DNA from: Chiloscyllium plagiosum
Taxonomy: Eukaryota
Direction: 5' to 3'
Length of the DNA: 64,000 nt
Assembly (NCBI RefSeq): GCF_004010195.1
Contig: NC_057719.1
Coordinates: forward strand, 2,017,280 to 2,081,279
Below are positions 645 to 59,593 of this stretch, piece after piece (positions within the stretch are counted from its first letter, which is position 1; each line of letters starts with the position of its first letter). The position numbers and the translations under genes were made by a program. The notes beneath the pieces are model-generated. The model made no database searches, had not been told where the DNA came from, and saw only the letters and a program-made list of their open reading frames with translations.

Positions 645-727
645 AGTCACACAACATCAGGTGACGAAGGAGCAGCACTCCGAAAACTTGTGATTTTAAA
701 TAAACCTGTTGGACTATAACCTGGTGA
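645..727 (+). mobile_element. Penelope-type short element, family B, with a degenerate hammerhead
   Basis: gtgacgaaggagcagcactccgaaaacttgtg...aataaacctgttggactataac; same family as the copies at 11.0, 37.1 and 52.8 kb; core mutated. Confidence 0.65.
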
Positions 728-959
728 CTCCTGAAGAAGTCTGAGTGTCACAGATGGATCTTTAACCAATTTGATTCACTCCTTGTGATCCAAGGAAAGA
801 GTGGAGGGCTCTGGGTAGTGCAAAGACAGTGGGCCCAGACAACAGCCCAGCGAATACCCCAGAATGAGCCACGGCCCTAAGTCTGGCTGTTCCGTCTTCA
901 ACGGCTTTAGTTCCTTTAATTTCATCACAGGGTTCGCTGAGGATTGCAGTGTTCAGAGG

Positions 960-1627
960 CATTCACAACTCCTCAGATGCTGAAGCAGTCCATGTTCAAA
1001 TATCCAGGCTTGGGCTGAAGAATGGAAAATAACATCCATTCCACACAAATGCCAGGCAATGACCACCTCCAAGAAGAGACAATTTAACCACTGCCACTTC
1101 ATATTCACTGAATTCCCCCATCAACATCCTGAGGGTTAGCATTGACCAAAAACTCAATTGGACTTGTCACATAAACACCGTGCCCACAAGAGCAGGTCAG
1201 AGGTTAGGAATACTGCGGTGGGTAACTCACCTCCTGACCCCCCCAAAGCCTGTCCATCATCTACAAGGCACAAGTCAGGAGTGTGATGGAATACTCCCGA
1301 CTTGCCTGGATGGGGGCAGCTCCAACAACACTCAAGAAGCTCGACACCATCCAGGACAAAGCAGCCGCTTGATTGGCCCCACATCCACAAACACCCCCTC
1401 CCTCCCCCACCGACGCTCAGTCGCAGCAGTGTGGACCATCTACAAGATGCACTGCAGACACTCACCAAAGACCCTCAGACAGCACCTTCCAAACCCATGG
1501 CCATTCCATCTGGAAGGACAAGGGCAGCAGATACATGGGAACACCACGCCCTGCAAGTTCCCCTCCGTGACCCTCACCATCCTGACTTGGAAATATATCG
1601 CCGTTCCTTCAGTGTCACTGGGACAAA
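960..1627 (+). mobile_element. L2/CR1-group LINE 3' fragment
   Basis: Near-identical to copies at 6910-7420 and 21480-22470; frameshifted RT C-terminal coding (RAGQRLGILR..HLL). Confidence 0.8.
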
Positions 1628-1805
1628 TACCAATTAATTCCAATCTCTGTGCTGTTTCCTTTTTTTTGGACTTGAAGTATTTATCTTGTTCTTTTTTGGA
1701 AGTTACTAATGAATCTGTGTCCTCTGCCATTTTGTTGTGTAAATGTGTTTCTCATGTCATCTCTGATTCTTTCAGTATTTCAGTTCAACCTGTGTCCCTC
1801 ACTTA

Positions 1806-2505
1806 TCTTATGAAGATGCGGGTGAACTATACTTCTTAAGAGAATTAAAAGCTAGCAGTGACAGCACCAAGTGTTCTCAATAAGACACAATGTGACATGT
1901 GCTCCAGCTACTGGGGTAGCTGGTTGCCTGGAAATGACAAAGCAGATTTGAATTAGGCCAATCAGTTTAAATTTGCCCTGAAAAATACCGAATTCCAATC
2001 TAGTTTGAATTGAGTATATTGCCAATTTTAAAAGCCAATGATGCTCTGGGGGTATAAGACCTGGGAAAATTGAGCAGTTAAGAGGAGAACTGTCAAGCCA
2101 CCAGCTTGTAAAAAGACTGCCTGAAAAATAGCTCTCTTAAAGGTACCTTTATCAATCAGTAACCTGTGAAGCAGAAATTCCTAAGAAGAAGAAAAGACAC
2201 AGGAAGATCCAAATAGAAGATCTGAAAGCTGCCTGGTTTCGAGATGAGAAGTTTTATTTTGTAAATCTCAGTTGGGAGTTTTATCAAACTAGTATTATAA
2301 AAGGGAAGATCAAGGATAGGTTAGAGGAAGGACTTGTACTAGTTGTGAGTTAATTATTCTCTGTTATACTTTAAGAAAATAAAGTTAATTTTTACTTTAA
2401 ATAGTTCTTGGCCACTCAGTTTTTTTACAGATTACTGCACGGGATAAATCTTTTCTGTGTTGCTGGTTTTAAATTAAACAGGAGAGTTTGTTCCGTGTTG
2501 TAACA
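1806..2505 (+). mobile_element. Solo LTR (Gypsy/ERV-like), about 700 bp
   Basis: Ends ...TGTAACA and begins T(C)TTATGA (probably a degenerate TGTTA). Contains CCAAT boxes (~1959, ~2034), TATAAG (~2053) and AATAAA (~2378). Flanks ctta/ccta resemble a 4-bp TSD. Confidence 0.65.
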
Positions 2506-4590: not shown

Positions 4591-4859
4591 CAGAGAGATC
4601 TACCATGTGGAAAAAGACCCTTCAGCCCATTGTGTCCATGCTGGTCAGAAACAACCAGCCAACTATTCCAAAATAAAGCAAAGAATTGCGGATGTGGGAG
4701 ATCTGAAACAAAACAGAATTGTTGGAGGAACTCAGCATCTGTGGAGAGAGGAACAGTTCTGAAGAAGGGTCACTGGACCCATTAACTTTGTTTCTTTCTC
4801 CACAGGTGCTGCCAGACCTGCTGAGTTTCTCCAGCAATGTCTGTATTTTGTTTGTTACC

Positions 4860-8340: not shown

Positions 8341-8641
8341 GCTGTGTTGGAGGGTAATTGTTTGGAATGGTGCTTTGAATGTCTTTTATTTTGGTGGGAT
8401 TGAGAAAGGAGTTCCCTGTTTTTAAGGAATATAAGAGGGGGATTATTCACCCCAATGAGTACGTTTTATTTCTGGAGGGGTCAGTTTAAATTCTTTCCCC
8501 CACCCCCATCAGCAATTCGTGAAATGGATCTCTCTCACCCAATGCAACGTTTAAAAGTCACTTAGAGAAAAACAGAAATCGCCTGGTCAGGATTGTGGAG
8601 AGAAGTGAGAAGGTCGGCTGGAGTGGAACAAAGTCACTTAC

Positions 8642-10880: not shown

Positions 10881-10927
10881 GCCCTCTGCTTCCAGCAGCT
10901 TTTAAAGTTTGCAAACAGGACTCAGAC

Positions 10928-11013: not shown

Positions 11014-11036
11014 GATCCAACAGGTTTATTTGGAAA

Positions 11037-11071
11037 CACTAGCTTTCAGAGCACTGCTCCTTCATCAGGTG
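11037..11071 (-). ncRNA. Minimal hammerhead ribozyme motif (family B)
   Basis: Minus strand: CAC-CUGAUGA-A-GGAGC-AGU-GCUCU-GAAA-GC-UA-GUG. Stem I is CAC/GUG, stem II closes with G-U, stem III is the palindrome AGCU. Confidence 0.65.
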
Positions 11072-12429: not shown

Positions 12430-12598
12430 GAAAGTGAGGACTGCAGATGTTGAAGATCAGACTCGAGAATGTGGTGCTGGAAAAACACAGCAGGTCAGGC
12501 AGCATCCGAGGAACAGGAGAGTCGATGAAATGGCAATTCTCCTGCTCCTCAGATGCTGCCTGACCTGCTGTGTTTTTCCAGCACCACACTCTCGACTC
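12430..12598. mobile_element. Palindromic Penelope-derived short element (family A)
   Basis: Inverted arms gtggtgctggaaaaacacagcaggtcaggcagcatc and its reverse complement; imperfect direct repeats ctccaccat.tttc on both flanks. Confidence 0.8.
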
Positions 12599-13094
12599 CA
12601 CCATCTTTCCAGGTAATGCATTCCAATTTGAACCACGATGATTAAATGGCACCAGTAGGCTAGTTTTTAATCCAAATTTATATTGAGTTCAAATGTCACC
12701 ATCTGATTTGAACCCATGTTGCCAGAATGTTAGCCTGGAATTCCATTAGTTCAGTCACTACAACACAACCTCACCATATACTGTTTTTCTCCATGCTGAA
12801 GTGAATTGTTCATCCAAAATCATTATGATGCAACTCCTTCAAGCACCAGTGGAGTTGTACCAAGTCTTATTAATTTTCTATGTTAAAGTTTTATTGGGTT
12901 TATATATATATATATATTAAATGACTCTAGGCTGTGCTTGGCATTGCTATTCTCTAAATATTTGTAGGGGAGGTTTGACCCAGCTCTCTAAAAGCCTCTC
13001 CACAGTGTGGCCTCCATTGGTCTCTCTTGTCATGCATTGATTTGCACACAGTAAGCTCTAGGACACCTCTAGATGCACAGCTTTTGTTTTCCTG

Positions 13095-13340
13095 CTCCGC
13101 CTCCCACTCCACCAAGGACATGCAGGTCCTTGGACTCCTCCATCGCCAGACCATAGCAACACGTCGGCTGGAGGAAGAGCGCCTCATCTTCCGCCTAGGA
13201 ACCCTCCAACCACAAAGAATGAACTCAGATTTCTCCAGTTTCCTCATTTCCCCTCCCCCCACCTTGTCTCAGTCCCAACCCTTGAACTCATCCTTGGATG
13301 CTGCCTGACCTGCTGCGCTTTTCCAGCAGCACATTTTCAG
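13095..13340 (+). mobile_element. Penelope-like element 3' remnant (GIY-YIG endonuclease C-terminus plus pseudo-LTR sequence)
   Basis: Encodes SHSTKDMQVLGLLHRQTIATRRLEEERLIFRLGTLQPQRMNSDF, the R..EE..IF.L.TL.P.G.N signature of PLE ORF ends. It continues into the family-A sequence ggatgctgcctgacctgctgcgcttttccagca. Confidence 0.8.
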
Positions 13341-13614: not shown

Positions 13615-14260
13615 AATAAACGAAAGAACAAAGAGAGGTACAGGACAGGAACAGACCCTTCAGCCCTCCAAGCTTGTTCCCATCATCACGCCCTAATTAA
13701 ACTAAGAAACAAATCTGCCCTTATTCAGTCCATATCCCTCCATTCCTGAAGAAGGGCTCATGCCCGAAACGTCGATTCTCCTGCTCCTTGGATGCTGCCT
13801 GACCTGCTGCGCTTTTCCAGCAACACATTTTCAGCTCATATCCCTCTATTCCCTCCCTATTCATGTAACCATCCAGATCCCTCCTAAACTGCATGCTTCC
13901 ATCTTCTGGCAGCGCGCTCCAGGCTCCTAGCGCGCTCTGAGTGAAATACTTCCCTCGCACATCTCCCTTAAACTTTCCCCCTCCCCTCACCATGAACCTG
14001 TGCCCCCTTGTAATTGAAACGTCAACCCTGGGGAAAAGCCTCTGACTATCCACCTTGTCTATGCCCCATATAATCGTGTAGGCCTCCTAGGTCTCCTCTC
14101 AGCTGCTATCTTTCCAGTGAAAACAATCCTAGGCTTTGTAACCTTCCCCATAACTAATGCCCTCGAGACTAGGCAACATCCTGGTGAACCTTCTCTGTAC
14201 TCTGTCTCTAAAGTTTCTGCATCCTTCTGGTAGTGTGGTGATCAAAACTGCACACAATAT
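13615..14260 (-). mobile_element. CR1 LINE 3' end with a nested family-A Penelope fragment
   Basis: Minus ORF SQRLFPRV...TRGHRF.VRGGKFKGDVRGKYFTQ. Confidence 0.8.
13742..13777 (+). ncRNA. Minimal hammerhead ribozyme motif (family A), intact core
   Basis: AUUC-CUGAAGA-A-GGGC-UCAU-GCCC-GAAAC-GUC-GAUU. Perfect stem II, palindromic ACGU stem III, GUC cleavage triplet. Confidence 0.7.
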
Positions 14261-16384
14261 CATGTCTTATCTTCAAATGATATTCTGAAGATATTCTTTT
14301 CTTTATTTTTTTCGTGTGATGTGGGCATCACGGGCAAGACCAGCATTTGTTGCCCTTTCATGATTGCCCTTGAACTGAGTGGCTTGCCAGGCTATGTCAG
14401 AGTCCAACATATTTAAGAGTTGCATTTGGGTGGCATCTCAAGGGTTTGAGGTCAGATGTTAGCCAGGTAAGGCCAGCAGTTTCTGTGGGTAGCAATCGGC
14501 TAATGCTGGAAATGGGGAATCTACCTAATGAGAAGGTTGAACCCGTACTTGTTGGATTCTAAAAGAATGAGTGATAACCTGACCAGTCACGATCAAATGG
14601 TGGAGCAGACTTGATGGGCTGAATGGTCTAATTATAGAATCCTACAGCACAGAGACAGGCCCTTTGGCCCAAACTGGTCCAAAATGTCTCCTATATCTTA
14701 TGGTCTTATAATAATCAAGAATATATTCACCTCTTGCCTTAAACATGTTTCAAGAGTCTGCAACCACTGCTTTTTGAGGAAGAGAATTCCAAACATTCAT
14801 AACTCTCTGAGAGAAAAAATTATTTCCCATCCCTGTGGCCCTTGTTTATAAACTTCCCAACAATATCAATGTGATGATTAAAGCTGCCCATATCCAACAC
14901 TGACATCTGACTTGACTTCATCGCCATCTCAGTTCATCTGCTGCTGAAATCTTCAGTTATGTCGTCACTATCCCTTCGAATGCACTGTTGTCTGGAATCC
15001 CAGATCTATCCCCCATCAACTTGGGGTCCTCCGAAGTTCTGCTACCCAGGCCCTTGTCTCATTGACCTTCGCTCACCAGCTTTCACTTAAGTAACATCTT
15101 GTTTCCGAAAGTCTAATCCTTGTTTCCAAATTGCTCCATGATTTTGTCCCAACCCACCCCTGAAACCGCCCCCATCCCCACGATCCTTTGTGACCTCTGG
15201 CCTCTTGTGAATCCCTAATTTTAATCATACTGCCTGTGGTAAGTGTGCCTAAACTGTGCTCTGAAATTCCTGGCCTCGATCTCCCTGTCACTTGATTTTA
15301 CTCTCTCTCTTCCTTAAACCTACACAGAATATGCAACAAAAAAAATCCTTTGGGTCCTGGAAAAATGAAAACCCTTATTAACCGGGATAGCGGTACTGGC
15401 ACCTTCCAAACCCAGCAACTAGACTAATCACAGAGAATGCTGTCAGTCTTTTAAACTGGAGTGCATTATCTGAAGCTTTTTTGAAGAGCTGGTGCAGTTA
15501 CAATGGATCAAACGGCCCTCATCTGGGCTGTAAGACTCAATAATTCTATTCCATTCGGATTTCTGAATCTCTGCCTGACCAGGGATCCTCTGTGTGACCC
15601 AATGGCGGATGTAAGCTGTACCTCAGCAGATTGTCAGTGTCAGTGTGGAGAAAGCAACCCTGAATTATTCATCCTTATACATGAGGCTCTATTGCACAGG
15701 ATATAATCTTCATTACCCTGATAGATTACGTCTGTTATCAAACAGAATGTCACTGGCCTTTCAAAAGGACTTAAAGTGATTACCAGATACAAATGGTGTA
15801 CACAGGGTGAAGTTTAATTTCTGATGTGTCTATATTGATGTATGGCTATACCCATATCCTACAGGTGCCTTCTACAGAGTGAGTGTTGTTTTTGGGCATT
15901 GTTGTGATGTGCCCCTGACAGGCCAGACATGGAGCAGGAACTTGTCCATTCACCTTCAGAATCGCAATGTTATGGAGGGAGGGAGGGAGAGGGGGGGGGG
16001 GGGGGGTCAAGTTCCAGTCCAGAGAGCAGAGCATGAAGTTGATGATGACACAATTGCAGTGCTGAGGGAGGGCTGAAGGGTCAGAGGTGTTCTCACCCTC
16101 ACCCTGTCTGTCCCCTCGGCTGGTGACTCTTCGAGATTTCAGCGACATTCCGCCCACAGTCAACAACATAACAGAAACTGACTGGCTGGTCACTTGTCAT
16201 ATGACAGTTTACACAGAAACTAAGAGGAGGAGTAGGCCATTCAGCCCCTCGAGTCTCTTCTGCTGTTGAACATGATCACGACTGATTGTCTGTCTCAATG
16301 CTGTATTCCCACTTTCTCCCCAAACCCTTCGATGCCTGTAAAATCTAAAAAAAAGTCTATTTCTTTCTTGAACAAACATCCCTA

Positions 16385-16608
16385 GGAGAAAGTGAGGACT
16401 GCAGATGCTGGACTGTCAGAGTTGAAAAGTTTGGTGCTGGAAAAGCCCAGCAGGTCAGGCAGTATCCGAGGAGCCGGCGGGTTGATGAAGGGCTTTTGCC
16501 CGAGGCATCGATTTTCCTGCTCCTCGGATGCTGCCTGACCTGCTGTGCTTTTCCAGCACCACTCTGATCTAAACTCTGGTTTCCAGAATCTGCAGTACCC
16601 ACTTTTGC
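16385..16608. mobile_element. Palindromic Penelope-derived short element (family A)
   Basis: Inverted arms around a degenerate core ttgatgaagggcttttgcccgaggc. Confidence 0.8.
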
Positions 16609-17399
16609 CTGGAGTCACATGTAGGCCAGACCAGGTAAGGACAGCAGATTTCCCTCCCTGAAGAACATTAGTCAACCAGATGGCTTTTTGTGACAGTGGT
16701 CACCATTAGAGTGACTTTTTATTCCAGATATTTTATTGAATTTGAATTTCACCATCTGTCAGGATGGGATTTGAACCCATGACCCAGAACATTAGTCTTG
16801 AATTCTGCGTTACTGGTCCAGTCTCATAGAACGTAGAACATAGAACAGTACATCACTTCAGCCCTCGATGTTGTGCCAGTCCTTTATCCTAGTCATTGCT
16901 GTGATGTCATCATCTCCTCAGCACCAGCTCATATGTGCGTATATATTGCTATAGACAAGCTCAGTAGTCCATATATGTCTTATTGTATGGGGACATGGTA
17001 TCATATAGATATGTAGGTACCTTAATCATCAAGGTTTACAAAGAAGGATTTTCAGACTGTCAGGTCAGTGCTGGTCAAAACCAGCCACCCTGTAAATATT
17101 TAAACTTTATGATGACGTTTAATATATGAGGTAGAGGCAAGTTATAAATACCATTAAGCATAATTTGGAAAACTTTTTAATGTTAACACTAGCTTTCTGA
17201 CTTCAGTTCTGTCCTTCCACACAGTTCACCATTTCTTCTGTGGTGCCCATTCTCAGTCAGTTTTAGCATCTGAAACAAAATGAAAATAACTTTAAAGCAA
17301 CATTAACAGCACAAACTTTACAATTTGTGCCAATTGTGCTTTGCTCCTATCAAGTTAAGGTTATTAAAGTTTGAAAGTGCCCCGGGTCTTAACAAAAAC

Positions 17400-17593: not shown

Positions 17594-18128
17594 GAGTCAT
17601 AGAGTCCTACAGCTCAGAAACGGACCCTTCGGTCCAACCAGTCCAGGCTGCCCATAATCCCCAACTAAACTAGTCCCTAACCAAAAGAGAAAATGCTGGA
17701 AAATCTCAGCAGGTCTGGCAGCATCTGTAAAGAGAGAACAGAGCTGACGTTTCAAGTCTAACTGACCCTTTGTCAAAGTTAGTCCAACCTGCCTGCACTT
17801 GGTCCATATGCCTCCAAACCTTTCCTGTTCATGTACTTATCCAAATGTCTTTTAAACATTGCAACTGTACTCTCATCCACCATTTCTTCAGGATGTTCAC
17901 GCCACTCTCTGTGTAAAAAAAATTACCCTCATGTCTTTTTTAAATCTTTCTCCTCTCATCTTAAAAATACATGCCCCAGTCTTGACATTCCCCACCCAGG
18001 GGAAAGCCACCTGCCATTTACTTTATTTATGCCCCTCATGATTTTATTAACCTCTATAAGGTCACCCCTCAACCTCCGACCCTCCACGGAAAACAGCCCC
18101 AGCCTATCCATCCTCTCCTTATAATTCA
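17594..18128 (-). mobile_element. CR1 LINE 3' end with a nested short element
   Basis: Reverse complement of the CR1 3' UTR and RT end (ataaggtcacccctcaacctcc). Confidence 0.8.
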
Positions 18129-18884: not shown

Positions 18885-20830
18885 TTATCGAAATAGTGAG
18901 AGACTCGAGAGCTCTGGGATGCAGACGGGCCTGAGTAAGGATCACAGAAGGTTAGTGTGCACTTACAGTAAGTAATCAGGAAAGCTCATAGAATAGTATC
19001 ATTTTTTGCAATGGGAATTAAAAGCAAGAATAGGGAGGTTTTGTTTCACCTATACAGGGCATTGGTGAGACCACATCTGGAGTAATACATACAGTATATA
19101 TTTCTGAAGAAGAGTCATTAAGGTTTGATTAGGCCACTGTTGGAATATTGTGTGCAATTCTGTCTCCTTCCTATCGGAAAGATGTTGTGAAACTTGAAAG
19201 GGTTCAGAAAAGATTTACAAGGATGTTGCCAGGGTTAGAGGATCTGAGCTATAGGGAGAGGCTGAATAGGCTGGAGCTGTTTCCCTGGAGCGTCGGAGGC
19301 TGAGGGGTGACCTTATAGAGATTTATAAAATTATGAGGGGCAAGGTCTTTTCCCTGGGGTGGGGGAATTCAGAACTAGAGGGCATAGGTTTAGGGTGAGA
19401 GGGGAAAAATTTAAAAGCGACCTAAGGAGCAACTTTTCCACGCAGAGGGTGGTGCATGTACAGAATGAGCTGCCAGAGGAAGTGGTGGAGGCTGGTACAA
19501 TTATTACATTTAAAAGGCAGCTGAATGGGTACATGAATAGGAAGGGATTGGAGGGATATGGGCCGGGTGCTGGCAAATGAGACTAGATTAATTTAGGATA
19601 TCTGGTTGGCATGGATGAGTTGAACCAAAAGATCTGTTTCCGTGCTGTGTATTTCTATGTCGCTATGAATGGTGCAGGAGGGGCTGAATGGCCTCACCTG
19701 CTTCTATTTTCTATGTTTCTCTCTGGCCTCTCCTGAGAGCCTTTTATGTGGTTATGTTGAGTAGAATTCTTTTCCTTTTAAACTAGATTAGTTTAAGATA
19801 TCTGCTCAGCATGGATAAGCTGGACTGAGGGTCTGTTTCCGTGCTGTACATGCCTATGACTTAATGACTCTAATAGTATCATTTTTTGCAATGGCAATTG
19901 AAAGCAAGAGTAGGGTGGTCATGTTTCAGTTATACAAACAGTTGGTGAGACCACATCTGGAGTAATATGTACAGTGTATGATTCTGAGGAAGTGTTGTGA
20001 AGTGTTGTGAAGTCTTAACACTGTCTTTCTCTGTCCACAGATGCTAACACAGCTGCTGAGTTTCTCCAGCATTCTCTGTGTCTGTTCAGATTTTCAGCAA
20101 CCGCAGTAATTTGCCCTTTTTAAAATTATATTACTGTGTACAGTGTTGGTCATCTTATTTAAGGAAGGGCTAAGCTGGATCAGTCCAGGGAAGGGTTTAA
20201 GAAGCGTGGTGCTGGAAAAGCACAGCCAGTCAGGCAGCATCCAAGGAGCAGGAGAGTCAACGTTTTGGGCATAAGCTCTTCACCAGGAATGGCACGTATG
20301 CCCAAAACGTCGACTCTCCGGCTCCTTGGATGCTGCCTGACTGGCTGTGCTTTTTCAGCACCACAACGTTTTGACTCTCATCTCCAGCACCTGCAGTCCT
20401 CACTTTCTCTTCAGGGAAGGGTTTACCCAATGAATACCAGAGGAAAGATTGGGTGGGCTGTGTTTGTATCCACTGAAATGTTCAAGAGTGTGAGGTGACT
20501 TGATTGAAACAGATACGATCCCGGGAGGGTCTCAATAGGGATGATGCGGAGAGGATGAGGGAGAATCTCGAACGAGGGGTCTCTGTTTACACATCAGGGG
20601 TCAGCCATTTAAAAGAGAGATGAGGAGAAGGTTTTTCGCTTGTAAAGTTGAGATTCTTTGGAACTCTGTCCCTGACAAACAATTGGAAGCAGGGTCTTGC
20701 AGTATTTTAAAAGCAGAACTGGATTCAGCAGAGGGGGTAAGAGATTATTGGGAAAGGCAGGAATGTGAGTTTGAGGTCACAGTCAGATGAACCATGAAGT
20801 TGTTAATACACAAGAGTTGGAATGGTTTAC
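18885..20830 (+). mobile_element. Old CR1 3' region with younger CR1 and Penelope-type insertions
   Basis: Several RPHLEY/CVQF-coding segments and 3' UTRs; younger CR1 at about 19125-19665. Confidence 0.75.
20200..20411. mobile_element. Palindromic Penelope-derived element with 14-bp TSD
   Basis: cagggaagggttta at 20186-20199 and 20412-20425 flanks the inverted arms. Confidence 0.85.
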
Positions 20831-26196: not shown

Positions 26197-26396
26197 TAGG
26201 AGAAAGTGAGGTCTGCAGATGCTGGAGATCAGAGCCGAAAATGTGTTGATGGAAAAGCGCAGCAGGTCAGGCAGCATCCAGGGAACAGGCGAATCGACGT
26301 TTCGGGCATAAGCCCTTCTTCAGGAATTCCTGTTCTCGATTCTCCTGTTCCCTGGATGCTGCCTGACCTGCTGCGCTTTTCCAGCAACACATTTTC
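26197..26396. mobile_element. Palindromic Penelope-derived element with TSD
   Basis: ggctccttaaagc at 26181-26193 and 26397-26409. Confidence 0.85.
26291..26329 (-). ncRNA. Minimal hammerhead ribozyme motif (family A), intact core
   Basis: Minus strand: GAAUUC-CUGAAGA-A-GGGC-UUAU-GCCC-GAAAC-GUC-GAUUC. Confidence 0.7.
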
Positions 26397-32957: not shown

Positions 32958-32960
<3 letters not shown>

Positions 32961-34429: not shown

Positions 34430-34600
34430 CCAAAACAGAAATTGTTGGAGAAACTCAGCAGGTCCGGCAGCTTCCGTGGAGAGAAAAAACACGGGTTACG
34501 TTTCGGGTCGAGGCACCCTTCTTCAGAACTGGATGCTGCCTGTCCTGCCAACTTTCTCCTGCACTTTCAGTTCTCGTTTCAGATTTCCAGCATCCGCAAT
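34430..34600. mobile_element. Palindromic Penelope-type element (family C) with a hammerhead-like core
   Basis: Minus strand CAGUU-CUGAAGA-A-GGGU-GCCUCG-ACCC-GAAAC-GUA at about 34496-34531; flanking inverted arms. Confidence 0.6.
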
Positions 34601-35989: not shown

Positions 35990-37117
35990 GTGAGAAGGTG
36001 GGGGTGAGCTGTCTTCTTGAACCGCTGCAGTCCATGTGCTGTGGGTTGACCCACAATGCCCCCTTAGGGAGGGAATTCCAGGATTCTGATCCAGCGACAG
36101 TGAAGGAACGGCGATATATTTCCAAATCAGGATGCTGAGGGGCTTGGAGGGGAACTTGCAGGAGATGGTGTTCCCATGTATCTGCTGGTCATGTCGTTCT
36201 AGATGGAAGTGGCTGTGGGTTTGGAAGGTGCTGCCTGAGGATCTTTGGTGAGTTTCTGCAGTGCATCTTGGAACTACTGAGCATTAGTGCTGGAGGAGTG
36301 AATGCTTGTAGATGTGGTGCCAAATGTTCTTGCTGTGTAACTGGGTCAGTATCCTGCAACAGCATTGTGGGTCTATCTACAGCACATGGACTGCAGTGGT
36401 TCAAGAAGGCATCTCACCCCCACCTTCTCAAGGGGCAACTAGGGACGGGCAATTAATGTTGGCCCACTTAGAGCTGCCCATATCCTATGAATTAATGAAG
36501 AAAAGAACATTTATTGGAGTTCTTTGAAGACATACCATGTTCTGTGGATAAAGGGGACCTGCTACATGTACTGTACTTAGATTTTCATAAGTCATTTAAG
36601 AAATTATTGAAAATTTTATAACAACTTAAAGTAAATAAATAAAACACTGAAGATGAAAGCCTCTGGTGTGGGGGGCAGGACATCCCTGGGTAGAAGCTTG
36701 GATTGCTGACAGGAGATGCAGAAACATAGAAAACAGAAGCAACGGGAGGCCCTTCAGGTAAAAACAAGGACTGCAGATGCTGGAAGCCAGAGTCGAGATC
36801 AGAGTGGTGCTGGAAAAGCACAGCAGGTCAGGCAGCATCCGAGGAGCAGGAAAATCGATGTTTCGTGCAAAAGCCCTTCATCAGGAATAGAGGCAGGAAT
36901 CCTGAAGGGTGGAGGCCATTCAGCTCTTCGATCCTGCTCCACCATTCAATATGATCATGGCTGATTATCCAACTCAGTCCTGTATTCCTGCTTTCCCCCC
37001 ATAGCCTTTGATCCCCTCAGCCTTAAGAACTATACCTAATCTCTTCTTGAAATCATACAATGTTTGGCCTCAACTAATTTCTGTGATGTGGTAGTGCCTG
37101 TGTGCTGCTCTCTTGCC

Positions 37118-37154
37118 TCACCTGAGGAAGGAGCAGCGTTCTGAAAGCTTGTGA
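37118..37154 (+). ncRNA. Minimal hammerhead ribozyme motif (family B)
   Basis: UCAC-CUGAGGA-A-GGAGC-AGC-GUUCU-GAAA-GC-UU-GUGA. Stem I is UCAC/GUGA; stem II contains G-U pairs. Confidence 0.6.
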
Positions 37155-37886
37155 TTTCATAGAAACCTGTTCGACTATAACCTGGTGTCATGTGACGTCT
37201 GACCTTGAACTACCTTCTGTGACAGAGAATACCACAGGCTGACTGAGTGAAGACATGTCCCCTCACCTCCCATCTCAGCAGCGGGGAGGGAGAGAGCGCG
37301 AGCCGGGGGCAGCTGGGAAGGTAAATTAGAACATTAATCACTTACCTGATCAGGATGGGAAGCGGACACAAGGACTGCTGGGTAAGTGAACTAATATATT
37401 CAGGCAGTAGCTAAACCCGAAACACTGCATGTGTAGTGTGTCCTGCTCGTCGTCCACCTCTAACCATAAGTAAAGACTCTGTGTGAAGGGTTGGTATGGT
37501 AAGGCTTTTTAAAAAATCTCTCTTGGTAATGTAGAGCAGAGGGGATGGAGGCTCGAGCAGTTGTATGCTCGCCTTGCAGGATATGGGAGCTAAGGGTCAC
37601 CCTGCTGACGTCTCCTGTGAGAAGAGCACCCAGCTCCAGCTCCTCACAGACTGCGTTAAGGAATTAGAGCTGGAGGAACTTTGGATTATTCAGAGGCTGA
37701 GGGGGGGATAGAGAGGAGGTATAAGATGGAAGTCACATCTAAGTTATAGGACAAAGGTAGCTGGGTGACCGTCAGGAGAGGAGAAGGGAATATGCAGACA
37801 GTGCAGGGACGTCCTGTGGCCGTTCCCCTCAATAATAGGTACACTGTTTTGGGACCTATCATGGGAGGGACGGTACCCAGGTTTAT

Positions 37887-44497: not shown

Positions 44498-45910
44498 TCC
44501 AGACCTTTAGCTGCCTGATAGGAATGAACAATTGTTGCCGTGACATGGTCTTTAAATGTTTGCCACCCACCATCATTTCTTTAAGAACCGTTCCCCAATT
44601 TATCGTAGCCAGCTCACACTCCACACTATCATAATTTCTGCTATTTAGATTCAGCACCCTCATCTCAGAACCATCTACATCACTCTCCATCTTGATGAGG
44701 AATTCTATCCTTTTGGCAATCCAGTTGTACGAGGTTCCTTGCTGGTGGACCCAGTATTTATTGCCCGTCCCTAGTTGCCCCTTGAGAAGGTGGGGGTGAG
44801 CTGCCTTCTTGAACCACTGCAGTCCGTGTGCTGTGGGTTGACCCACAATGCCCTTAGGGAGGGGATTCCAGGATTCTGACCCAGTGACACTGAAGGAACG
44901 GCGATATATTTCCAAGTCAGGATGGTGAGTGGCTTGGAGGGGAACTTGCAGGGGGTGGTGTTCCCATGTGTCTGCTGCCCTTGTCCTTCTCGATGGAAGT
45001 GGTCTTGGGTTCTCAAAGAAAACTGGGGACAAGCAGTAAGAAAAATCTGGAATTAAGAATCTAGTGATGACCCTGAATCCATTGTCAATTGTCGAAAAAA
45101 CCCATCTGATTCACTAAAGGTAATGAGAGAAGGAAATCTGCCACCCTTACCTGGTCACGCCTACATGTGACTCCACAACCACAGCAACGCGGCTGACTCT
45201 TACCTGCCCCCTGGATAATTGGGGATGGGCAATAAATGCAAGCCCAGCCAGTGACACCCTCATCCTCTGAATGAATTAAAATAAAACACTGCCAGCAATG
45301 TTCATGTCCCATGAGTGAATTAAAAAGAATTTTATGGTCACTCATCCCCAGAGGGCCTCGCACAATAACATTGCCAATTATTCTTTTCTCAATCCCCAGG
45401 ATAGTAGGATGGACCGGTCTCGAGGTAAAAACAATGACTGCAGATGCTGGAAACCAGATTCTGGATTAGTGGCGCTAGAAAAGCTCAGCAGTTCAGGCAG
45501 CATCCGAGGAGCTTTGAAATCGACGTTTTGGGTAAAAGCCCTTCATCAGGAATAAAGGCAGAGAGCCTGAAGGACCTGGACCGGTCTCTAGTTGGTTCCA
45601 GGAAACCATCCTGTACACAGTCCAGGAATTCCTCCATAAAGAATTGTTATGAATTTGATTTGCCCAATCTATAAGCAGATTAAGGTCACGCATAATTAGA
45701 GATGTTTCTTTGTTGCATGCATCAGTAATTCCTCGCTTAACGCCCATTCCCAGAATCACCATGAATGTTTTCTGTCCCTTGGTGTTTCTCAGCTTTCCCG
45801 TACAGATTCCATGTTGTCAGAGCTACATCTTTCCTCACGATTGTGTTAAGTTCCTCTTTAAGCAGCTGCGCAATTCAACTACATTTTCCATTTTGCCCAT
45901 CCTTCCGAAA

Positions 45911-50374: not shown

Positions 50375-50512
50375 CCAAAGAACTGTGGGTGCTGGAAATC
50401 AGAAACTAAACCCCCACCCCCAGAAATTGCTGGAGAAACTCAGGTCTAGCAGCATCCGTGGAGAGAAAACAGAGTTAACGTTTCAGGTTCAGTGACACTT
50501 CCTCAGAACTCC
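50375..50512 (-). mobile_element. Penelope-type family C element with a decayed hammerhead
   Basis: Minus strand GAGUU-CUGAGGA-A-gugucacugaaccu-GAAAC-GUU-AACUC. Stem I is perfect; stem II is mutated. Confidence 0.6.
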
Positions 50513-51270: not shown

Positions 51271-52809
51271 TGGAGTAGCAGGAGACCACAATCGGGCTGG
51301 AAGGGAGAAGCTGTGCAGGGAGCTTGCTACCCAGTAACCTGCGCTAGGGGAGAGGACTGTCTGGAATATGGGCACGGTTATGATCGTCTGCGGTTCACCA
51401 CTTGGTTGAATAGTCAATCTTCTTCCAGATGCTGACCTGTTCCTCACCCACATCCCCACCCCCCCAAAATAAAATTCTCATACATCCTCAGTGATCCACT
51501 CGGAGGATGAGAGAGTGACCCAGGGAGCTATAGGATGCTCACTTTGTGCTCTGCAGCAATGTGTAGTAAGGAGTTAGCAAGCAGTCGGTGCAAGTGTTGT
51601 GTTGGAGCCCGGGCTGTTTGGCTGTTGCAGTATGTGTGTAGTGCTGGCGCGAACTAACTGTGTCGCGGGAAAGGCTGCAACTTAATCCGATAAAGGTCAC
51701 TGAGTGGGTCTCCAGCCACCTGTTGAGATCCTTTCTGACTTCAGCAGCCAAATGTTTAACTAAAGCTGCGAAGAGTTGGAATGTTTACATTCAGAAAAGC
51801 TCAAGATCATTAATTTCCTAAGCTCAAGACCCATTTGAGGTGACATTCAGGCCTTAAAAGGGAAATTTAGGGGAGTCTGCTCTGCCATAGCCTCTTGTAT
51901 TGCCCAGTCTAAACCCTACTCCACCATCCAATATTCTTCAACCCTTGTTCAGGAACAAGCGGTTACTTTTCCTGCAGCAGTGTGTTGCCAGTTACACAAA
52001 ATCCTCTCTCTCTCTCTGTGACTATAAGCTTTAAACCCGACTTGGTGATGACTTCCTGAAATAATTTCGACTTTCACGCAGACAGCTGTGAACATGTGGT
52101 ATGAGGTGCAAGAATGTGCAGTGATGTCAGTCCCTAATCTGCACCTTGTGGTTAATTTTAAATCGCATTTCTGTCAAGCTCTGTCCAGTTTTTATGCTGG
52201 GAACATGCAGCTTGAATGGAATATTCAAGACAATTTTCATTCCGTTGCTGACACCATATCTTGGAAATTTTAAGGTTTGTTCATTTAAAAAGGACAGTGA
52301 GATGTGAACGGCTTTCTGGATTGCTTGTGTGCATCTCCGTCAGGGATTCAGTAGGAAAGGGGAGCTGTTTGTAATTTCCTTGTAATTTAGTTCCTCACTT
52401 GCTTGTTTAAATGGGAGTGTGTAACCTTTGACTCTTCCGGCTGTGCGCTATTTAATTGCAGGGGGCATCTATGATTCCCAAATCAGTTGAACCGACAGAT
52501 TTTCAGTGTAGCGTTTTGAAAACCTAAATGGATTACAGCACAGAAGGGGGCCATTTAATCTGTGTGTCCATGTTGAATTCTTGTCAAGTTGCTCTGACAA
52601 GTCCCATTGCCACACCTTTTCTCCAGAGCCTTGTAAACCTTTTCCTTCTTGTGAATCTTTTTTTTTTGCACTCTCTCCAATGCCCTCACATCCTTCTCAA
52701 AGTGCTTAGTTCAGAATTGGACGCACTGTTCCAACTGCAGCCAAACCAGTGCCTTACAAAGGTTTGCCCTGATGTGGCGATGCTGGTGTTGGACTAGGGT
52801 GGACACAGT

Positions 52810-52935
52810 CCGAAGTCACACGACACCAGGTTATAGTCCAACAGGTTTATTTCAAATCACAAGTTTTCAGCACAGTGCTCCGAAAGCTCAAATAAACCTG
52901 TTGGACTATAACATGGTGTCATATGACTTCGGACT
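52810..52935. mobile_element. Palindromic family-B Penelope-type element
   Basis: gttatagtccaacaggtttattt and aaataaacctgttggactataac form inverted arms. Confidence 0.75.
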
Positions 52936-53339
52936 TTTTACAAAGATTCGGAAAAGTTTCCATTTTACGTGCTCACTGCCCCTATTTGTAAATCCCAAGA
53001 TACCTTTCTCCTTATTAATTGCCCTGCTACATTCTACAATCTGTGCACAGATATGCCCAGTTTTTCTGCACCTGCACCCTCTTCAGAATTGTATCCTTTA
53101 TATTCCTTTGTCTCATTTTTCCTTCTGAAATGTATCTTTTCACTCTTCAGTCATGTAGTTATAAAAAGTGATGGCATTAGCTTCTAAAAGATTCAGAGAA
53201 TTTCGTTTCATAGACACCCTACAGTGTGGAAGCAGGCCACTTGGCCCAACAAGTCCACACAGATCCTGACAGGGTAGTTTCCCTGATTTTTCAAGCCAGC
53301 GTTTATTTATTCTTTATTATTGCACCAGTTAGAAGTGCC

Positions 53340-53820: not shown

Positions 53821-54812
53821 ACAATCATAGAATCCCTGTGGGGTGGAAAAAGGCCATTCGGCCCGTCGAGTCCAAACCCACCCTCCGAAGAGTATCCCAC
53901 CCAGACCCAGCTCCTTACCCTATCCCCCAACCGTGTATTTGTCCCATGGCTAACCCCCCTGGCCTACACATCCCTCAACACTATGAGCAAGTGAAGCATG
54001 GCCAGTCCACCGAACCTGCGCATGTTTGGACTCTGGGAGGTAACCGGAGCACCCGGATAAACCTGTGCAGACACTGAGAGAACGTGCTATAGAAATGCAA
54101 GATTTCTTCACCTGTGTGATACTTACTTCAAAGGTTTTCCTGGGACCAAGAATGAAGGTGAATTTGAGCCAATGGTGCTAAACACCCTTTGGCTTATGAT
54201 GCGTCTTTGCCAGTGTTTGTTTCTGAATAACTATTTAAACCTCTGCCATTCCAGCAATTCAGTTTGAAAATTATAAATAGTGACTGACAGAAATGGCCAG
54301 GACAACGATTAAAGGTTTTTTGTGATTGTCAGTGGTCTGGCTGTATATCCGTGTTGGTTGAATAATGACCCTGTAGCACTATGAGAGAATGAATAAACCC
54401 AGCATTGTGTCACATCTTCTGTGTGGGTGCCCGTGAGCAGCTTACAGCCAGTTCTGCCTTTTATGTTGAAGTTCAGGAAAAGGCAGAAGCCAATTTGCGC
54501 ACAGCAAGCTCCCATAAACGATACAGTCCCGAAACGTTGACTTCCCCTCCTCCTGATGCCGCCTGGCAAGCTGTGTTCTCCCATCCTCCTGCCTGTCTAC
54601 CCATAAACAGCAAGCTGACTCAATGAAAGATAAATATTCTCATCAGGCATAACTCCTATTCAGACAAGAACAGTACGATGGGACCTTTTAATGTTCCTCC
54701 AGTGGGGAATTAGGATTGTTTTAATCTGAAAAAGCAACAGATCTGACTGTGTGGGTCTTCCATTTGATTAGAGAGTCAGCCTGGATTGGTTTCCGCCCAC
54801 ACTCTTTCCTCA

Positions 54813-56026
54813 AAGTGGAGAGTGGTGAATGTTGTGCCCCTGTTCAAAAAAGGGAGTAGGGATAACCCCGGGAATTACAGGCCAGTTAGTCTTACTTCGG
54901 TGGTAGGCAAAGTAATGGAAAGGGTACTGAGGGATAGGATTTATGAGTATCTGGAAAGACACTACTTGATTAGGGCCAGCCAGCACGGATTTGTGAAGGG
55001 TAGGTCATGCCTTACAAGTCTTATTGAATTCTTCGAGGAGGTGACCAAGCATGTGGATGAGGGAAGAGCAGTGGATGTAGTGTACATGGATTTCAGTAAG
55101 GCATTTGATAAGGTTCCCCATGGTAGGCTTATGCGGAAAGTCAGGAGGCATGGGAAAGTGGGAAGTTTGGCCAGTTGGATAGAGAACTGGCTAACCGGTC
55201 AAAGTCAGAGAGTGGTGGTAGATGGTAAATATTCAGCCTGGAGCCCAGTTACAAGTCGAGTTCCGCAGGGATCAGTTCTGGGTCCTCCGCTGTTTGTAAT
55301 TTTTATTAATGACTTGGAAGAGAGAGTCGAAGGGTNNNNNNNNNNNNNNNNNNNNNNNNNNNNNNNNNNNNNNNNNNNNNNNNNNNNNNNNNNNNNNNNN
55401 NNNNNNNNNNNNNNNNNNNNNNNNNNNNNNNNNNNNNNNNNNNNNNNNNNNNNNNNNNNNNNNNNNNNNNNNNNNNNNNNNNNNNNNNNNNNNNNNNNNN
55501 NNNNNNNNNNNNNNNNNNNNNNNNNNNNNNNNNNNNNNNNNNNNNNNNNNNNNNNNNNNNNNNNNNNNNNNNNNNNNNNNNNNNNNNNNNNNNNNNNNNN
55601 NNNNNNNNNNNNNNNNNNNNNNNNNNNNNNNNNNNNNNNNNNNNNNNNNNNNNNNNNNNNNNNNNNNNNNNNNNNNNNNNNNNNNNNNNNNNNNNNNNNN
55701 NNNNNNNNNNNNNNNNNNNNNNNNNNNNNNNNNNNNNNNNNNNNNNNNNNNNNNNNNNNNNNNNNNNNNNNNNNNNNNNNNNNNNNNNNNNNNNNNNNNN
55801 NNNNNNNNNNNNNNNNNNNNNNNNNNNNNNNNNNNNNNNNNNNNNNNNNNNNNNNNNNNNNNNNNNNNNCTGCCTGTGGGAGTGGCAGAGTCAGAATCAT
55901 TGGTGACCTTTAAGCGGCAATTGGATAGGTACATGGATGGGTGCTTAAGCTAGGACAAATGTTTGGCACAACATCGTGGGCCGAAGGGCCTGTTCTGTGC
56001 TGTATTGTTCTATGTTCTATGTTCTA
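54813..56026 (+). mobile_element. Young CR1 LINE (open RT frame, gap, 3' tail)
   Basis: [32 protein letters not shown]...[12 protein letters not shown]...[11 protein letters not shown]...VPQGSVLGP; (ttctatg)n tail. Confidence 0.92.
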
Positions 56027-56789
56027 AAGTGATTTCCTCCTAAGAACTGGTGCGAGAATAGACATAGGGTGTCTCAGTTATGAGCGTCTGACTTATAAGC
56101 CATTCAGGGGTGGAATTTTAAAGACTTGACGTACGAACGTTTCCTGTTCTTATGAATGACTGTACCGTGTTGCAGTGTGTTCTGACCTGTGTACAGATTG
56201 ACTTGTAAACTGACTCTAGAATGGAACCCATTCACAGCTTGTACGTCATTGAGAGTGTTGGGGCCCACATGGTGCAAACCTTGCTCCCCATGTCCACCAC
56301 TCCTTTAATGTTGTTCTCTCTGACCCATTAGGTTGGACACTTGGATTTTAACACCCTGGCCTAAAGGAGGAATATGGAAAAAAGGCATATTTGTCAAACG
56401 TTTGTAAATTGCACTCACTAATTCACAATTTTCAAAGCTTTGACAAAACTTTTTTATTTTCGCTCAGCGGTACTCAAGCTCTGTACTCGCAAATGGCTGG
56501 GTCACTAAAGGAATTAGAATCCTGCCTTCACAAAACAAAGGAAAGATGTGGGATAAGGTGAAGAGCCAAGGCCTTTTACCTAGGGTAGGGGAGTCGACAG
56601 CTAAAAGGTGAAGGTTTAAAAGGGTCCTGAGAGGTCTGCGTGGCTGTGTCAGACAAAGGGTCTGTTTCCATGCTATATGACTACTGGTTTTCAGAAGGGA
56701 ATTAGATCATACTTAAAAGTAGAGAAACATTGTAAGACTGCAGGAAAAAGCGCAGGAATATGGGACGAATTGAGATCAGTATTTCAGAG

Positions 56790-57290
56790 GGCAAAACTGA
56801 AGATTGCAGATGCTGGAAATCAGAGTCTAGATTAGAGTGGTGCTAGAAAAGCACAGCAGATCAGGCAGCATCCGAGGAGCAGGAAAATCGACATTTCGGG
56901 CAAAAGCCTTTCATCAGGAACAGAGGCAGGGTGCCTCCGGGGTGCAGAGATAATTGCAGGCTTCCTGCCTCTATTCCTGATGAAAGGCTTTTGCCCGAAA
57001 CGTCGATTTTCCTGCTCCTCGGATGCTGCCTGACCTGCTGTGCTTTTCCAGCACCACTCTGATCCAGACATCAATAATTCAGATAGAAGAAAGTGAGGTC
57101 TGCAGATGCTGGGGATCAGAGCTTAAAAATGTGTTGCTGGAAAAGCGCAGCAGGTCAGGCAGCATCAAAGGAACAGGAGAATCTACGTTTCGGGCATAAG
57201 AAGGGCTTATGCCTGAAACGTCGATTCTCCTTCTCCTTTGATGCTGCCTGACCTGCTGCGCTTTTCCAGCAACACATTTTTAAGCTAAGA
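56790..57290. mobile_element. Two adjacent palindromic Penelope-derived elements (family A)
   Basis: Elements at about 56790-57066 and 57085-57290. atcaataattcaga occurs at 57070-57083 and 57291-57304, with a 12/14 match at 56775-56788. Confidence 0.85.
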
Positions 57291-59394
57291 ATCAATAATT
57301 CAGAGTCAGCACTGGCATAACGGCCAATTGACCTCCTCTGCTGTGAAGTCCTTAGAGATGTGGAGTTGCTATTTTCAAGTTTCTGGTGATACACTGCTGA
57401 TGGACCAAAGGCAGATTATTATTGCAAACATGCTGTAAAGGAGAAAGGGTATCACTCGAACAAAGACACAGTGGATTTGTAGATTCGTATAGTGCTGAAA
57501 AGGCCATTCGGCCCACCACCATCAAGTGTTGGTGCTGAGTCTGAATGTGAAAAGGGACCATTGTTTAGCTTGTCCAGCTGTCCCATGAAGTCCTCAGAGG
57601 TACTTCTGCTATGTGTGATGTAGAATTGAATTTGGTTTGAGTGTCCCTCACGGTGGTCTCTGGTCTGGAATATGTATGTATTTGTTCCTGCCGATACTCG
57701 GTGCTACAATCACACCATTGAGCTGCTTTGGTAGGTCTTCGAAACAGCAGGCTTTCCCCACACGCCAGAGCAGCATGTCTCTCTCTCTCTCTCTCTCTCT
57801 TTTATAGTGGAGGAAGTGCTGAGTTGTTGAGCACAGTGACATTAAGAATTAAAGATCGAAAAGAGTTGGATGTCATCAGTTTCTTGACGTGTTAATTTCC
57901 TTGTGACATGCATCAGCCTGAGAATGAAAGAGCTCAGGATGGGCCGGGAGCTGGTTTGGGAAGGACATTTGGTTCATTAAACCTGCTTCCTGTGAAATTT
58001 CTCCTTGACCTCTTGAGGTAATCTGCTGAAACTCCGGCACATCAATCTAATGTTACAGCCTTGCATTATTTAAGCTTGACTGGTAGTATTCTCCAGATAT
58101 TTCCATTATATTAACAGAACAGGCACCGTGTTCTGTCTAAGTACACATGGATCCACATGGCAGTAACATGGTTTCAATTTGGGTGACAGCTGTGCTTATT
58201 CCTTCATCTTGTACAGTCTCGATGCAGGTTCCCAGCCTGTTGGATTCCAATCTCCTGAGGGAATTCTACAGTGTTTGTGACAGAAAGTTTAAACTAAAGT
58301 TAGCGGCTTAATGCATGGAGACGTGTTTAAATATTTTAACTGAAGCTGTACTTGATGCAATCTCAATTTTTTTTAAAATCTGAAAACTTTCTATTTGCTG
58401 AAATTCGTTGCTGATTAGTTTGACAAAGTAAAATAAAACAGGGCAGTTTGACCCTGGTATTCTAACAGTAAATGCGGCTAATGGCCAATGTTGTCTTCCT
58501 GAGTGTGACTCTATAGCTAATCCGTGCAAAAATATATTTGTGAACCCAGCAAATATTTCCACTAAGTGAATTTGACAGTTTTAAAGGGGAAAAATAAAAT
58601 TCCTCAAATGTGGGTGACTTTTATAAAAAAGAGCTTTAGTTTGCATAAACTGGTTTATCTGCACCCCCCCCCCCAGCTTAGTTGCCAAAGGTAATTGAAT
58701 AGTCCTGCCTTTGATATCGCACTTGAATGTAGCTAGTCAAGCCAATAAACTTCTGAAGCGTGCTGACTGTAATTGACTCTGGAGTTTATTGTAAAAGGAT
58801 CCCTTACACAGCAGAGAGATTAGGAGCCTCCCACCTGTTGCCTTTTCAACATTTTCTTAACCTATCTCCTGCTACCCCCCAGAACTCCTTCCATTGCTTG
58901 CTTCAAAGAATCGGGTTTGTTATTTGAAACTTTAATACGTGTTCCCTGAACATTGGACTCTGGGAATTCTCTTTTCTCTGGATTATAGCTCAGTGTACTG
59001 ACTGTCTAAAACAGAAATGAAGGATTTAACTAATCGTGCTAGTATTAGGTGTAGAGATGACAGCTGTCTCTTAATGTCTTTAGAAATTATTCTATCCTCC
59101 ACAAAGCAAGCTTCTGTATCTTTGTAAAGCATGAAGTTGGAAGCCCTTGAACCTTCAGTTACGTTTTCCTGCATGTTTTTTTTTTCCTTCTCTCATCCTG
59201 CCCCACAGCTTCAGGTTATGAATCTTCCATTTCCAAAAATTGCCACGCAGATCAACCTTCGATTTGAAACTGAATTCTATTTTAAAATGTTTCTGTCACT
59301 CCTGATCTACTGTAAGGGCTGTGAGTCAGGGAAAGATTTGGTATTGCTATTTCCCAGCACAATCTTGACTATGTTTCTGTTTATAGTCAAAGGG

Positions 59395-59593
59395 GCTGGT
59401 GCTGGAAAAGCACAGCAGGTCAGGCAGCATCCGTGAAGCAGGAGAGTTGATGTTTCGGGCATAAGCCCTTCATCAGAGCTTATGCCTGAAACGTCAGTTC
59501 TCCTGCTCCTTGGATGCCGTCTGACCGGCTGTGCTTTTCCAGCACCACTATTTTCAACACTGACCTTCAGCATCTGCAGTCCTGACTTTCTCC
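59395..59593. mobile_element. Palindromic Penelope-derived element (family A)
   Basis: Inverted arms; minus-strand core CUGAUGA-A-GGGC-UUAU-GCCC-GAAAC-AUC. Confidence 0.8.

Follow-up and report, generated by a model that had tools for sequence, protein, structure and literature searches.

Hammerhead-bearing short repeats in Chiloscyllium plagiosum as probable pLTR end pieces of Neptune-type Penelope-like elements

Introduction

A 64,000-nt stretch of the Chiloscyllium plagiosum genome (NC_057719.1, positions 2,017,280 to 2,081,279; hereafter the window) contains many short dispersed repeats which, according to a preliminary description, fall into three families (A, B, and C) and carry minimal type I hammerhead ribozymes. 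This raises the question of what these repeats are, how they were copied, and what remains of the ribozymes in them. Our preferred reading, to which we give a probability of about 0.85, is that they are pLTR end pieces, each built round a hammerhead motif, from two or more Neptune-type lineages of Penelope-like elements (PLEs), one comprising family A and its older sister C and the other family B, and that they were likely copied from uncut RNA and are mostly decaying without function.

Hammerhead Motifs in the Window

A structural descriptor (CUGANGA, a stem II with a minimum of 3 bp, and GAAA) matched six sites in the window, against a mean of 0.54 and a maximum of 4 expected from 100 block-wise dinucleotide shuffles. 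Every copy listed in the preliminary description was found at its given position, but the list was incomplete, since a profile search recovered 31 repeat ends (18 of family A, six of B, and seven of C; Table 1). Only two of the 31 are strictly intact (C3 at 13746 on the plus strand and 26323 on the minus strand); both had been named as the best copies of family A. Two listed copies of family B, 11068 minus and 37122 plus, carry G-U pairs.

The core follows the type I order (C3-U4-G5-A6-N7-G8-A9, G12-A13-A14, A15.1-U16.1, and H17), as had been claimed. All eight representative natural copies have the extra A after A9, C, A, or U at H17, and, where helix III would be, a palindromic tetramer at 15.1-16.1 (ACGU in families A and C, AGCU in B); G10.1-C11.1 is present in seven of them and replaced by G-U in the window copy of family B. 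Full pairing of stem I did not hold, since the main A subfamilies have a U-U mismatch at the third pair and stem I of family B is only 3 bp long. Nor are families A and C independent of each other, as downstream sequence is common to both.

Table 1. Repeat ends and hammerhead motifs located in the window
Feature	Position	Strand	Remarks
Family B end	651..726	+	decayed; C3 and palindrome altered
Family C end	4753..4850	+	GAAAC deletion
Family B hammerhead	11037..11071	-	near intact (11068); G-U at 10.1-11.1; insertion ~10982-11140 with inverted arm
Family A inverted pair	12430..12599	.	without core; weak pre-miRNA hairpin score
GIY-YIG C-terminal fragment, then family A end	13096..13340	+	fragment 77% identical to family A EN; hammerhead deleted
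Solo family A insertion	~13741-13838		contains the 13742..13777 hammerhead; 10-bp target duplication
Family A minimal hammerhead	13742..13777	+	strictly intact, with C3 at 13746 and cleavage predicted after 13773
Family A inverted pair	16383..16609	.	core decayed
Family C-type end	17685..17775	-	decayed
Family C end	~20014	+	decayed
Family A inverted pair	20204..20409	.	A6 and G12 altered
Head-to-head palindrome	~26199-26401		encloses the 26292..26327 hammerhead; predicted hairpin pairs the cut site
Family A hammerhead	26292..26327	-	strictly intact; C3 26323
Family C end	~33818	-	decayed
Family C end	34435..34532	-	intact core and stem II; stem I broken
Family A end with tail	36757..36915	-	stem II and palindrome altered
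Family B end	37118..37213	+	37122; intact core; stem II with two G-U pairs
Family A end with tail	45424..45573	-	G12 to A
Family C end	~47357	+	decayed
Family C end with tail	50386..50511	-	stem II damaged
Family B inverted pair	52765..52950	.	cut off within core
Family A inverted pair	56791..57068	.	G10.1 to A in both arms
Family A inverted pair	57087..57285	.	cut off within core
Family A inverted pair	59397..59595	.	minus arm: core and stem II kept, stem I and palindrome lost

Parent Elements

The attribution of the motifs to minimal type I hammerheads of PLE pLTRs was supported, and is now tied to element ORFs in families A and B and to remnants in C. A full-length family A element consists, in this order, of a hammerhead, a leader of ~170 nt, an ORF (RT, a C-x4-C-x2-C linker, and GIY-YIG), a 3' UTR of ~200 nt, a second hammerhead, and an optional tail; the two motifs lie ~3.45 kb apart, and copies are ~3.5 kb long. 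Two full-length copies (L205 and L206) are 84.6% alike across 3,702 columns, and a further locus (L207) is a partial tandem. In 12 of 30 family A EN loci a same-strand hammerhead follows 404-513 nt downstream, and 10 others reach assembly gaps. Same-strand pairs 2 kb apart (L197 and L198), considered as possible element ends, proved to be separate insertions and were rejected.

The GIY-YIG domain of family A scored above the Pfam cut-off (E 3e-05) and the RT below it. In 20 of 25 family B loci a separate RT-EN frame lies upstream (397 aa, 31% identical to family A). [quoted passage not shown] The PLE hallmarks of pLTRs, partial tandem, inverted 5' copy, optional tail, and target duplication are all present. 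The linker expected of Neptune (CX2-5CxxC before GIY-YIG) occurs as C-x4-C-x2-C in both A and B, and by this sequence motif the two families are classed as Neptune-type; Neptune and Poseidon are described as widespread vertebrate groups (bioRxiv 10.64898/2026.07.22.740005).

Insertion Boundaries and the Copying Template

Short copies vary in where their 5' ends fall and may or may not carry a tail; they also have inverted partners (present in 43 of 78 copies of family A, 18 of 31 of B, and 6 of 46 of C), and target duplications, which reach at least 8 nt in 12 of 41 solo edge-starting copies versus 14 of 478 random pairs. Their 3' ends form two clusters ~35-40 nt apart. Most insertions start within ~12 nt of C3: 80 of 145 sampled 5' ends lie at -13 to +11, and 11 at +24 to +32, round the cut site. 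The flanks upstream of edge starts are mutually unrelated. The pile of 5' ends at the upstream edge of the ribozyme, with few at the cut site, suggests that the templates were likely uncut, the 5' end of the RNA being read here solely from insertion boundaries.

On the mechanism suggested by these boundaries, the element RNA would start a few bases upstream of C3, and RT would prime at two internal sites ~85 and ~125 nt downstream and then run off the RNA 5' end. Such internal priming, described in vitro for the anole Poseidon element (PMC11167929), would with run-off produce mini-copies, and priming at the 3' pLTR would produce long copies. The ribozyme would be selected only in source elements, whose transcripts contain two motifs that could pair with each other via the ACGU or AGCU palindrome, probably aided by the element's protein; dispersed solo or palindromic copies would likely not cut. 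The 4-bp palindrome duplex alone is worth only -1.7 to -2.5 kcal/mol, and the dimer fold, not representable in the cofolding set-up used, was absent from its output. Self-cleavage, as a dimer or aided by protein, is putative, being predicted from sequence.

The preliminary description had regarded the repeats as non-autonomous derivatives. For the most part this is unneeded, the short copies being end pieces of autonomous-type Neptune elements, but one real derivative was found, with an identical inversion junction at 29 loci, a fixed inverted pLTR end, and a variably cut other end. Since it is fixed at the pLTR end, this end appears to be enough in cis. It is nonetheless unlikely that most short copies stem from non-autonomous masters of their own (RNAs 90-130 nt long, of solo pLTR or SINE-like type), which the Neptune protein would have mobilised in trans, a source that would also suit the size of the copies (126 of the 145 sampled are no longer than 150 nt, with clustered ends) and for which there is a precedent in trans-mobilisation by pLTRs (PMC3846280). 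The stem II loop variants compared (TTTT, TCAT, and ATGT/CTGT) also occur downstream of EN, the 5' ends spread over ~25 nt, with longer copies trailing far upstream, and ORF-carrying copies (L199, L205, and L206) begin at the same edge as the short ones, so one template explains both size classes. Short copies could equally have come from transcribed solo pLTRs.

It is quite unlikely that the 5' pile-up was made by RT stalling at a folded or protein-bound hammerhead instead of by the end of the RNA. Although the pile and the ribozyme occupy the same place, and the ribozyme itself contains 24 of 137 starts, at +12 to +32, an RT moving 3' to 5' should stop at the 3' edge of the structure; there are 3.8 starts per nt at -13 to -1 versus 1.25 per nt at +25 to +32, and the fold is weak.

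Retrozyme-like circular RNAs, released by double hammerhead cleavage as proposed in PMC4209133, are a very improbable spreading form here, even though full-length elements carry two same-strand motifs and closely spaced pairs on one strand occur in a few cases (L034/L035; L199). Cleaved linear templates would start at +28, to which only 11 of 145 copies come near, and tandem hammerhead arrays are absent from the 64-kb window. Same-strand neighbours within 600 nt accompany 12 of 78 copies of family A, some as separate insertions, and none of 31 of B or 46 of C.

Covariation between Families and Decay within Them

As claimed previously, the stems differ between the three families yet stay paired. 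Changes on both sides affect pairs 2.1-1.1, 2.2-1.2, and 2.3-1.3 of stem I, 10.3-11.3 and 10.4-11.4 of stem II, and 15.2-16.2 of stem III, a comparison that covers only three related lineages and is not a statistical test. Pairs were counted by a script with structural anchoring, MAFFT having placed family B one column out of register.

Within family A, changes were counted at 12 of 472 non-CpG core positions, at 64 of 324 positions in CpG columns of the core, and at 84 of 1420 flank positions; G12 is altered in 9 of 54 copies, a loss at the CpG rate. The non-CpG divergence of the core (2.5%) is somewhat lower than the raw divergence of the flank (5.9%). The latter figure takes in three subfamily-diagnostic columns, and the scoring of matches favours intact cores, but there may be weak constraint on some copies. 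A core conserved no better than its flanks, which the preliminary description had regarded as speaking against the motif, was indeed found within families, but compensatory changes were seen between them. Decay of the core like the flanks points to neutral decay after insertion and does not thereby refute the motif: the selection signal lies between families, not within them.

None of 19 Rfam matches (E up to 10) is a hammerhead, and the weak pre-miRNA matches are palindromic insertions. The folding energy of the motifs alone was no better than that of shuffles (z -1.1 to +0.7 in all six cases), as expected of minimal hammerheads. Both results would suit chance look-alikes within ordinary repeats, but this explanation, of negligible probability, is refuted by the stem pairs changed on both sides between families, as well as by a core, extra A, G10.1-C11.1, and palindrome kept across lineages with 31% identical proteins, in the published pLTR position.

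Copy Number, Age, and Transcription

Intact-looking motifs number 71,809 for family A, 14,648 for B, and 91 for C genome-wide, in sum ~86,000-86,500, and by extrapolation the genome would contain roughly one million repeat ends. Family A is young, with 15,500 exact 32-mers. This favours the earlier suggestion that some copies are possibly still active; on the other side, neither the 30 RT loci nor the seven extended loci yielded an intact full-length ORF. Many long young family A copies run into assembly gaps.

Run X19 placed 2,806 reads on an interval of the partial tandem (L207:1200-2200), with a depth of ~770 and 1,010 on the two strands over the pLTR end versus less than 20 over the ORF start, and 98% of the reads continue into unlike sequence. 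No pile of read starts or ends was seen in this interval, the polyA single-cell library being a poor test of ends. No GT-AG joint indicating a leader intron, as found in some PLEs, was present among the joints shown by the mapped reads, whose depth in the leader was low. Run X20 gave no reads on the same interval. The read pattern shows passenger transcription only and is not counted against cleavage. It is hardly to be expected that the ~86,000 intact motifs, carried in host RNAs by read-through transcription of either strand, would pair in trans by their palindromes and cut host pre-mRNAs, with the Neptune protein as chaperone, when the element is expressed; if true, this would be a genome-wide RNA cleavage system switched by transposon expression.

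Comparison with Known Systems

The value of these repeats is their scale: about a million dated insertion ends allow the PLE copying mechanism to be read from boundaries, which point to an uncut template with its 5' end at the upstream edge of the ribozyme and so bear on what PLE hammerheads are for. A caution follows for surveys, since hammerhead counts in such genomes largely tally dead transposon ends.

Minimal hammerheads in pLTRs of metazoan PLEs have been known since 2014 (Cervera and De la Pena 2014, PMC4209133); the class is already published, and the families described here are unusual only in number. [quoted passage not shown] Stem II is 4-5 bp long here versus 7-8 bp in Schistosoma, and ~86,500 intact motifs compare with ~4,000 in coelacanth and ~9,000 in Xenopus, counted by different methods. 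No cartilaginous fish is named in the sections of that paper considered here, and a shark-specific report was not found in the freely accessible literature searched.

Compared with the Neptune clade of EN+ PLEs (Craig et al. 2021, PMC8557442), the present families are extreme in their surplus of very short copies that consist of an end alone. In the green anole, Poseidon_Ac (Frangieh et al. 2024, PMC11167929) similarly has two 3' end points, one on either side of an optional tail, and evidence for an uncut RNA template, with no read ends at the cut site. However, the hammerhead there contains the ORF start, and RT primes 111-118 nt into the ORF, whereas here the ORF likely starts ~170 nt downstream of C3, and the leader holds both end points. 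The non-LTR retrozymes of animals, surveyed with one chondrichthyan genome included (bioRxiv 10.64898/2026.07.22.740005), likewise carry type I hammerheads derived from PLE pLTRs, but they are head-to-tail tandem units, whereas the copies in the window are solo or head-to-head.

Hammerhead Motifs in the Window and Across the Genome

The hammerhead motifs listed in the preliminary description, which form three short-repeat families (A, B and C), were all found in the sequence. A descriptor combining the core and stem II matched the window six times, against a mean of 0.54 and a maximum of 4 in 100 shuffles, and a search with profiles built from genome copies yielded 31 repeat ends (18 of family A, 6 of B and 7 of C). 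A strict filter for intact copies demanded the core, 4 bp or more in stem II, two pairs in stem I, the palindrome and G10.1-C11.1 together. It was passed by 12 copies in 471,277 unselected bases, the window counted in; two of them lie in the window, with the first core nucleotide, C3, at 13746 on the plus strand and at 26323 on the minus strand. The family B copies at 11068 and 37122 contain G-U pairs in stem II, and all other window copies are broken.

In the 3.56 Gb assembly, one family A 32-mer has 15,500 exact matches, while the patterns for intact motifs (a degenerate one for A) matched 71,809 times for A, 14,648 times for B and 91 times for C, with zero matches for the reversed-pattern control in each case. 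A sample of 387,921 bases, drawn as forty arbitrarily placed 10-kb stretches, contained 110 ends, of which 51 belong to A, 38 to C and 21 to B; this extrapolates, roughly and with weak hits included, to about one million ends genome-wide. Family A is young and family C is old. More decayed hammerhead variants with different stems, among them an AGUC stem I, a GGGUUA stem II and, in one case, an AGCA/UGCU stem II, occur at L020:426-466, L112:4259-4462 and L004, three further loci of this genome, and the lineages therefore number more than three.

Further features of the window
Feature	Coordinates	Strand	Remarks
Notch-ligand gene exon	8558-9067	minus	Pfam MNNL, E 6e-38; presumably Jagged-like
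Near-intact family B copy (region)	10575-11140	that of the Notch-ligand gene	several CCAAT boxes in a GC-rich stretch ~100-150 nt away
30-bp part of B end	10928-11013		present three times
Family A inverted pair	12430-12599		palindromic; pre-miRNA hairpin score below threshold
EN fragment (a family A end follows)	13096-13263
Palindromic repeat of other type	23233-23329		pre-miRNA hairpin score below threshold
Minisatellite	24921-25753		70-bp unit
Minisatellite	26722-27704		33-bp unit
Tandem array	28015-32491		62-bp unit, 72 copies, 96% matches, strong C/T skew
Minisatellite	37887-38148		29-bp unit
LINE-type RT frame fragments	39256-41869, 54768-55913		RVT_1 E 7e-25 for 54768-55337; presumably CR1-like

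The GC-rich stretch near the family B copy may be the promoter of the Notch-ligand gene. The intron downstream of the exon would hold, in antisense orientation, the copies at 661 and 4753. Palindromic pairs such as the two in the table could supply much double-stranded RNA.

Parent Elements

Family A copies have the sequence downstream of the motif in common and vary in their upstream reach, the longer ones entering the C-terminus of a GIY-YIG endonuclease (EN; 8 of 20 loci examined). Among 30 GIY-YIG loci, a same-strand hammerhead follows 404-513 nt downstream in 12, and another 10 run into a gap; walking upstream through the reverse transcriptase (RT) and then the N-terminus reached the 5' terminal repeat (pLTR) at 3 of 30 loci. 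The walk recovered L205 and L206 as full-length copies, which agree in 84.6% of 3,702 columns, together with L207, a partial tandem; the layout is hammerhead, ~170-nt leader, ORF, ~200-nt 3' UTR, hammerhead and tail. The ORF, read across stops and frameshifts, would comprise about 1,000 codons, with GIY-YIG over and RVT_1 under the Pfam cut-off. Family B has a distinct ORF: a same-strand B end lies downstream in 20 of 25 loci with the cysteine linker, and one locus (L221) holds a single 397-aa frame with RT, linker and EN, 31% identical to A. ESM Atlas neighbours of both proteins carry HTH_animal and GIY-YIG, and in both families C-x4-C-x2-C precedes GIY-YIG, a kind of linker given as a Neptune and Nematis trait in PMC8557442. 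As for family C, EN remnants lie 205-397 nt upstream of four copies, and its downstream sequence is shared with A.

The repeats had been attributed to non-autonomous derivatives, which holds for one family of 29 copies, whereas A and B ends are tied to ORF-bearing elements. The 29 loci (L268-L296) share an identical inversion junction and represent one family A derivative; its inverted pLTR end is constant (14 with the tail, 15 without), the opposite side ends at many points, and several copies are identical but for 1 of 378 bases. As a family it is non-autonomous, small and recent, and its copying likely proceeded from the antisense direction; L142-L146 look like a second family resembling it.

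Insertion Anatomy and Proposed Copying Mechanism

In 471 kb of unselected DNA, a head-to-head inverted partner accompanies 43 of the 78 family A ends, compared with 18 of 31 in family B and 6 of 46 in family C. Counted from C3, the 3' ends form two clusters, at ~+80 to +95 and at ~+118 to +130, the latter near the limit of the reference used. With 10 hits set aside as weak or bordering a gap, 145 copies remain, and 126 of these measure at most 150 nt; 80 of the 145 begin at -13 to +11 and 11 at +24 to +32, the predicted cut being at +27/+28. Solo edge-starting copies share no mutual similarity in their upstream flanks, and a duplication of at least 8 nt was found in 12 of 41, versus 14 of 478 random pairs. 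The unrelated flanks and the excess of duplications indicate that the 5' pile is a true insertion boundary.

The element RNA would start just upstream of C3; internal priming by the RT at two tail-defining sites, with run-off at the RNA 5' end, would yield the mini-copies, and priming at the 3' pLTR the long truncated copies. According to PMC11167929, the RT of an anole element primes internally, its hammerhead cleaves only with protein, cleavage is not required for insertion, and RNA-seq ends are absent at the cut site. Alternatively, solo-pLTR masters could be the source of the short copies and would leave similar ones; counted against run-off are the placement of the RNA start from the boundaries and the lack of an intact parental ORF among the loci walked. 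One RNA run, a weak test of ends, showed the repeats transcribed as passengers from both strands, with no end piles seen.

Conservation and Decay of the Motif

Across families, the core, the extra A and G10.1 are constant and six stem pairs are altered on both sides, in line with the covariation proposed earlier. Within family A, changed cells amount to 12/472 in the non-CpG core, 64/324 in CpG columns and 84/1420 in the flank, three subfamily-marker columns included in the latter; families B and C decay similarly. G12, the general base of the hammerhead (PMC6155905), lies in a CpG and is altered in 9 of 54 A copies. Thus, the comparison of core with flanks suggested in the preliminary description reveals intra-family decay resembling that of ordinary DNA in all three families. 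Constancy between families together with decay within them points to upkeep of the motif in source elements rather than in dispersed copies. Palindromic insertions are predicted to fold into a very stable hairpin (-143 kcal/mol for 26225-26410) with the cut site paired, so that the copy at 26291-26329, previously rated among the best, is likely blocked in its natural context.

Comparison with Known Hammerhead Elements

Retrozyme identity is ruled out by the absence of tandem hammerhead arrays, and identity with an Rfam hammerhead by the lack of any model matching the window motifs. A literature search, with repeat libraries and supplements outside its range, found no report of hammerheads in shark Penelope-like elements (PLEs). 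As regards activity, metazoan minimal hammerheads were described as inactive as monomers and of low activity as dimers in PMC4209133, and eight of nine Xenopus dimers as lacking cleavage in bioRxiv 10.64898/2026.07.22.740005. The two 3' end clusters agree with the optional tail of PLEs described in PMC8557442, PMC3846280 and PMC11167929. The assignment to Penelope pLTR hammerheads is upheld by all sequence tests and, for A and B, by linkage to an ORF. The 2014 description (PMC4209133) covers every diagnostic trait noted in the preliminary description, as well as Neptune elements of fishes; the repeats belong, by their sequence, to the published PLE minimal-hammerhead kind, with putative catalysis.
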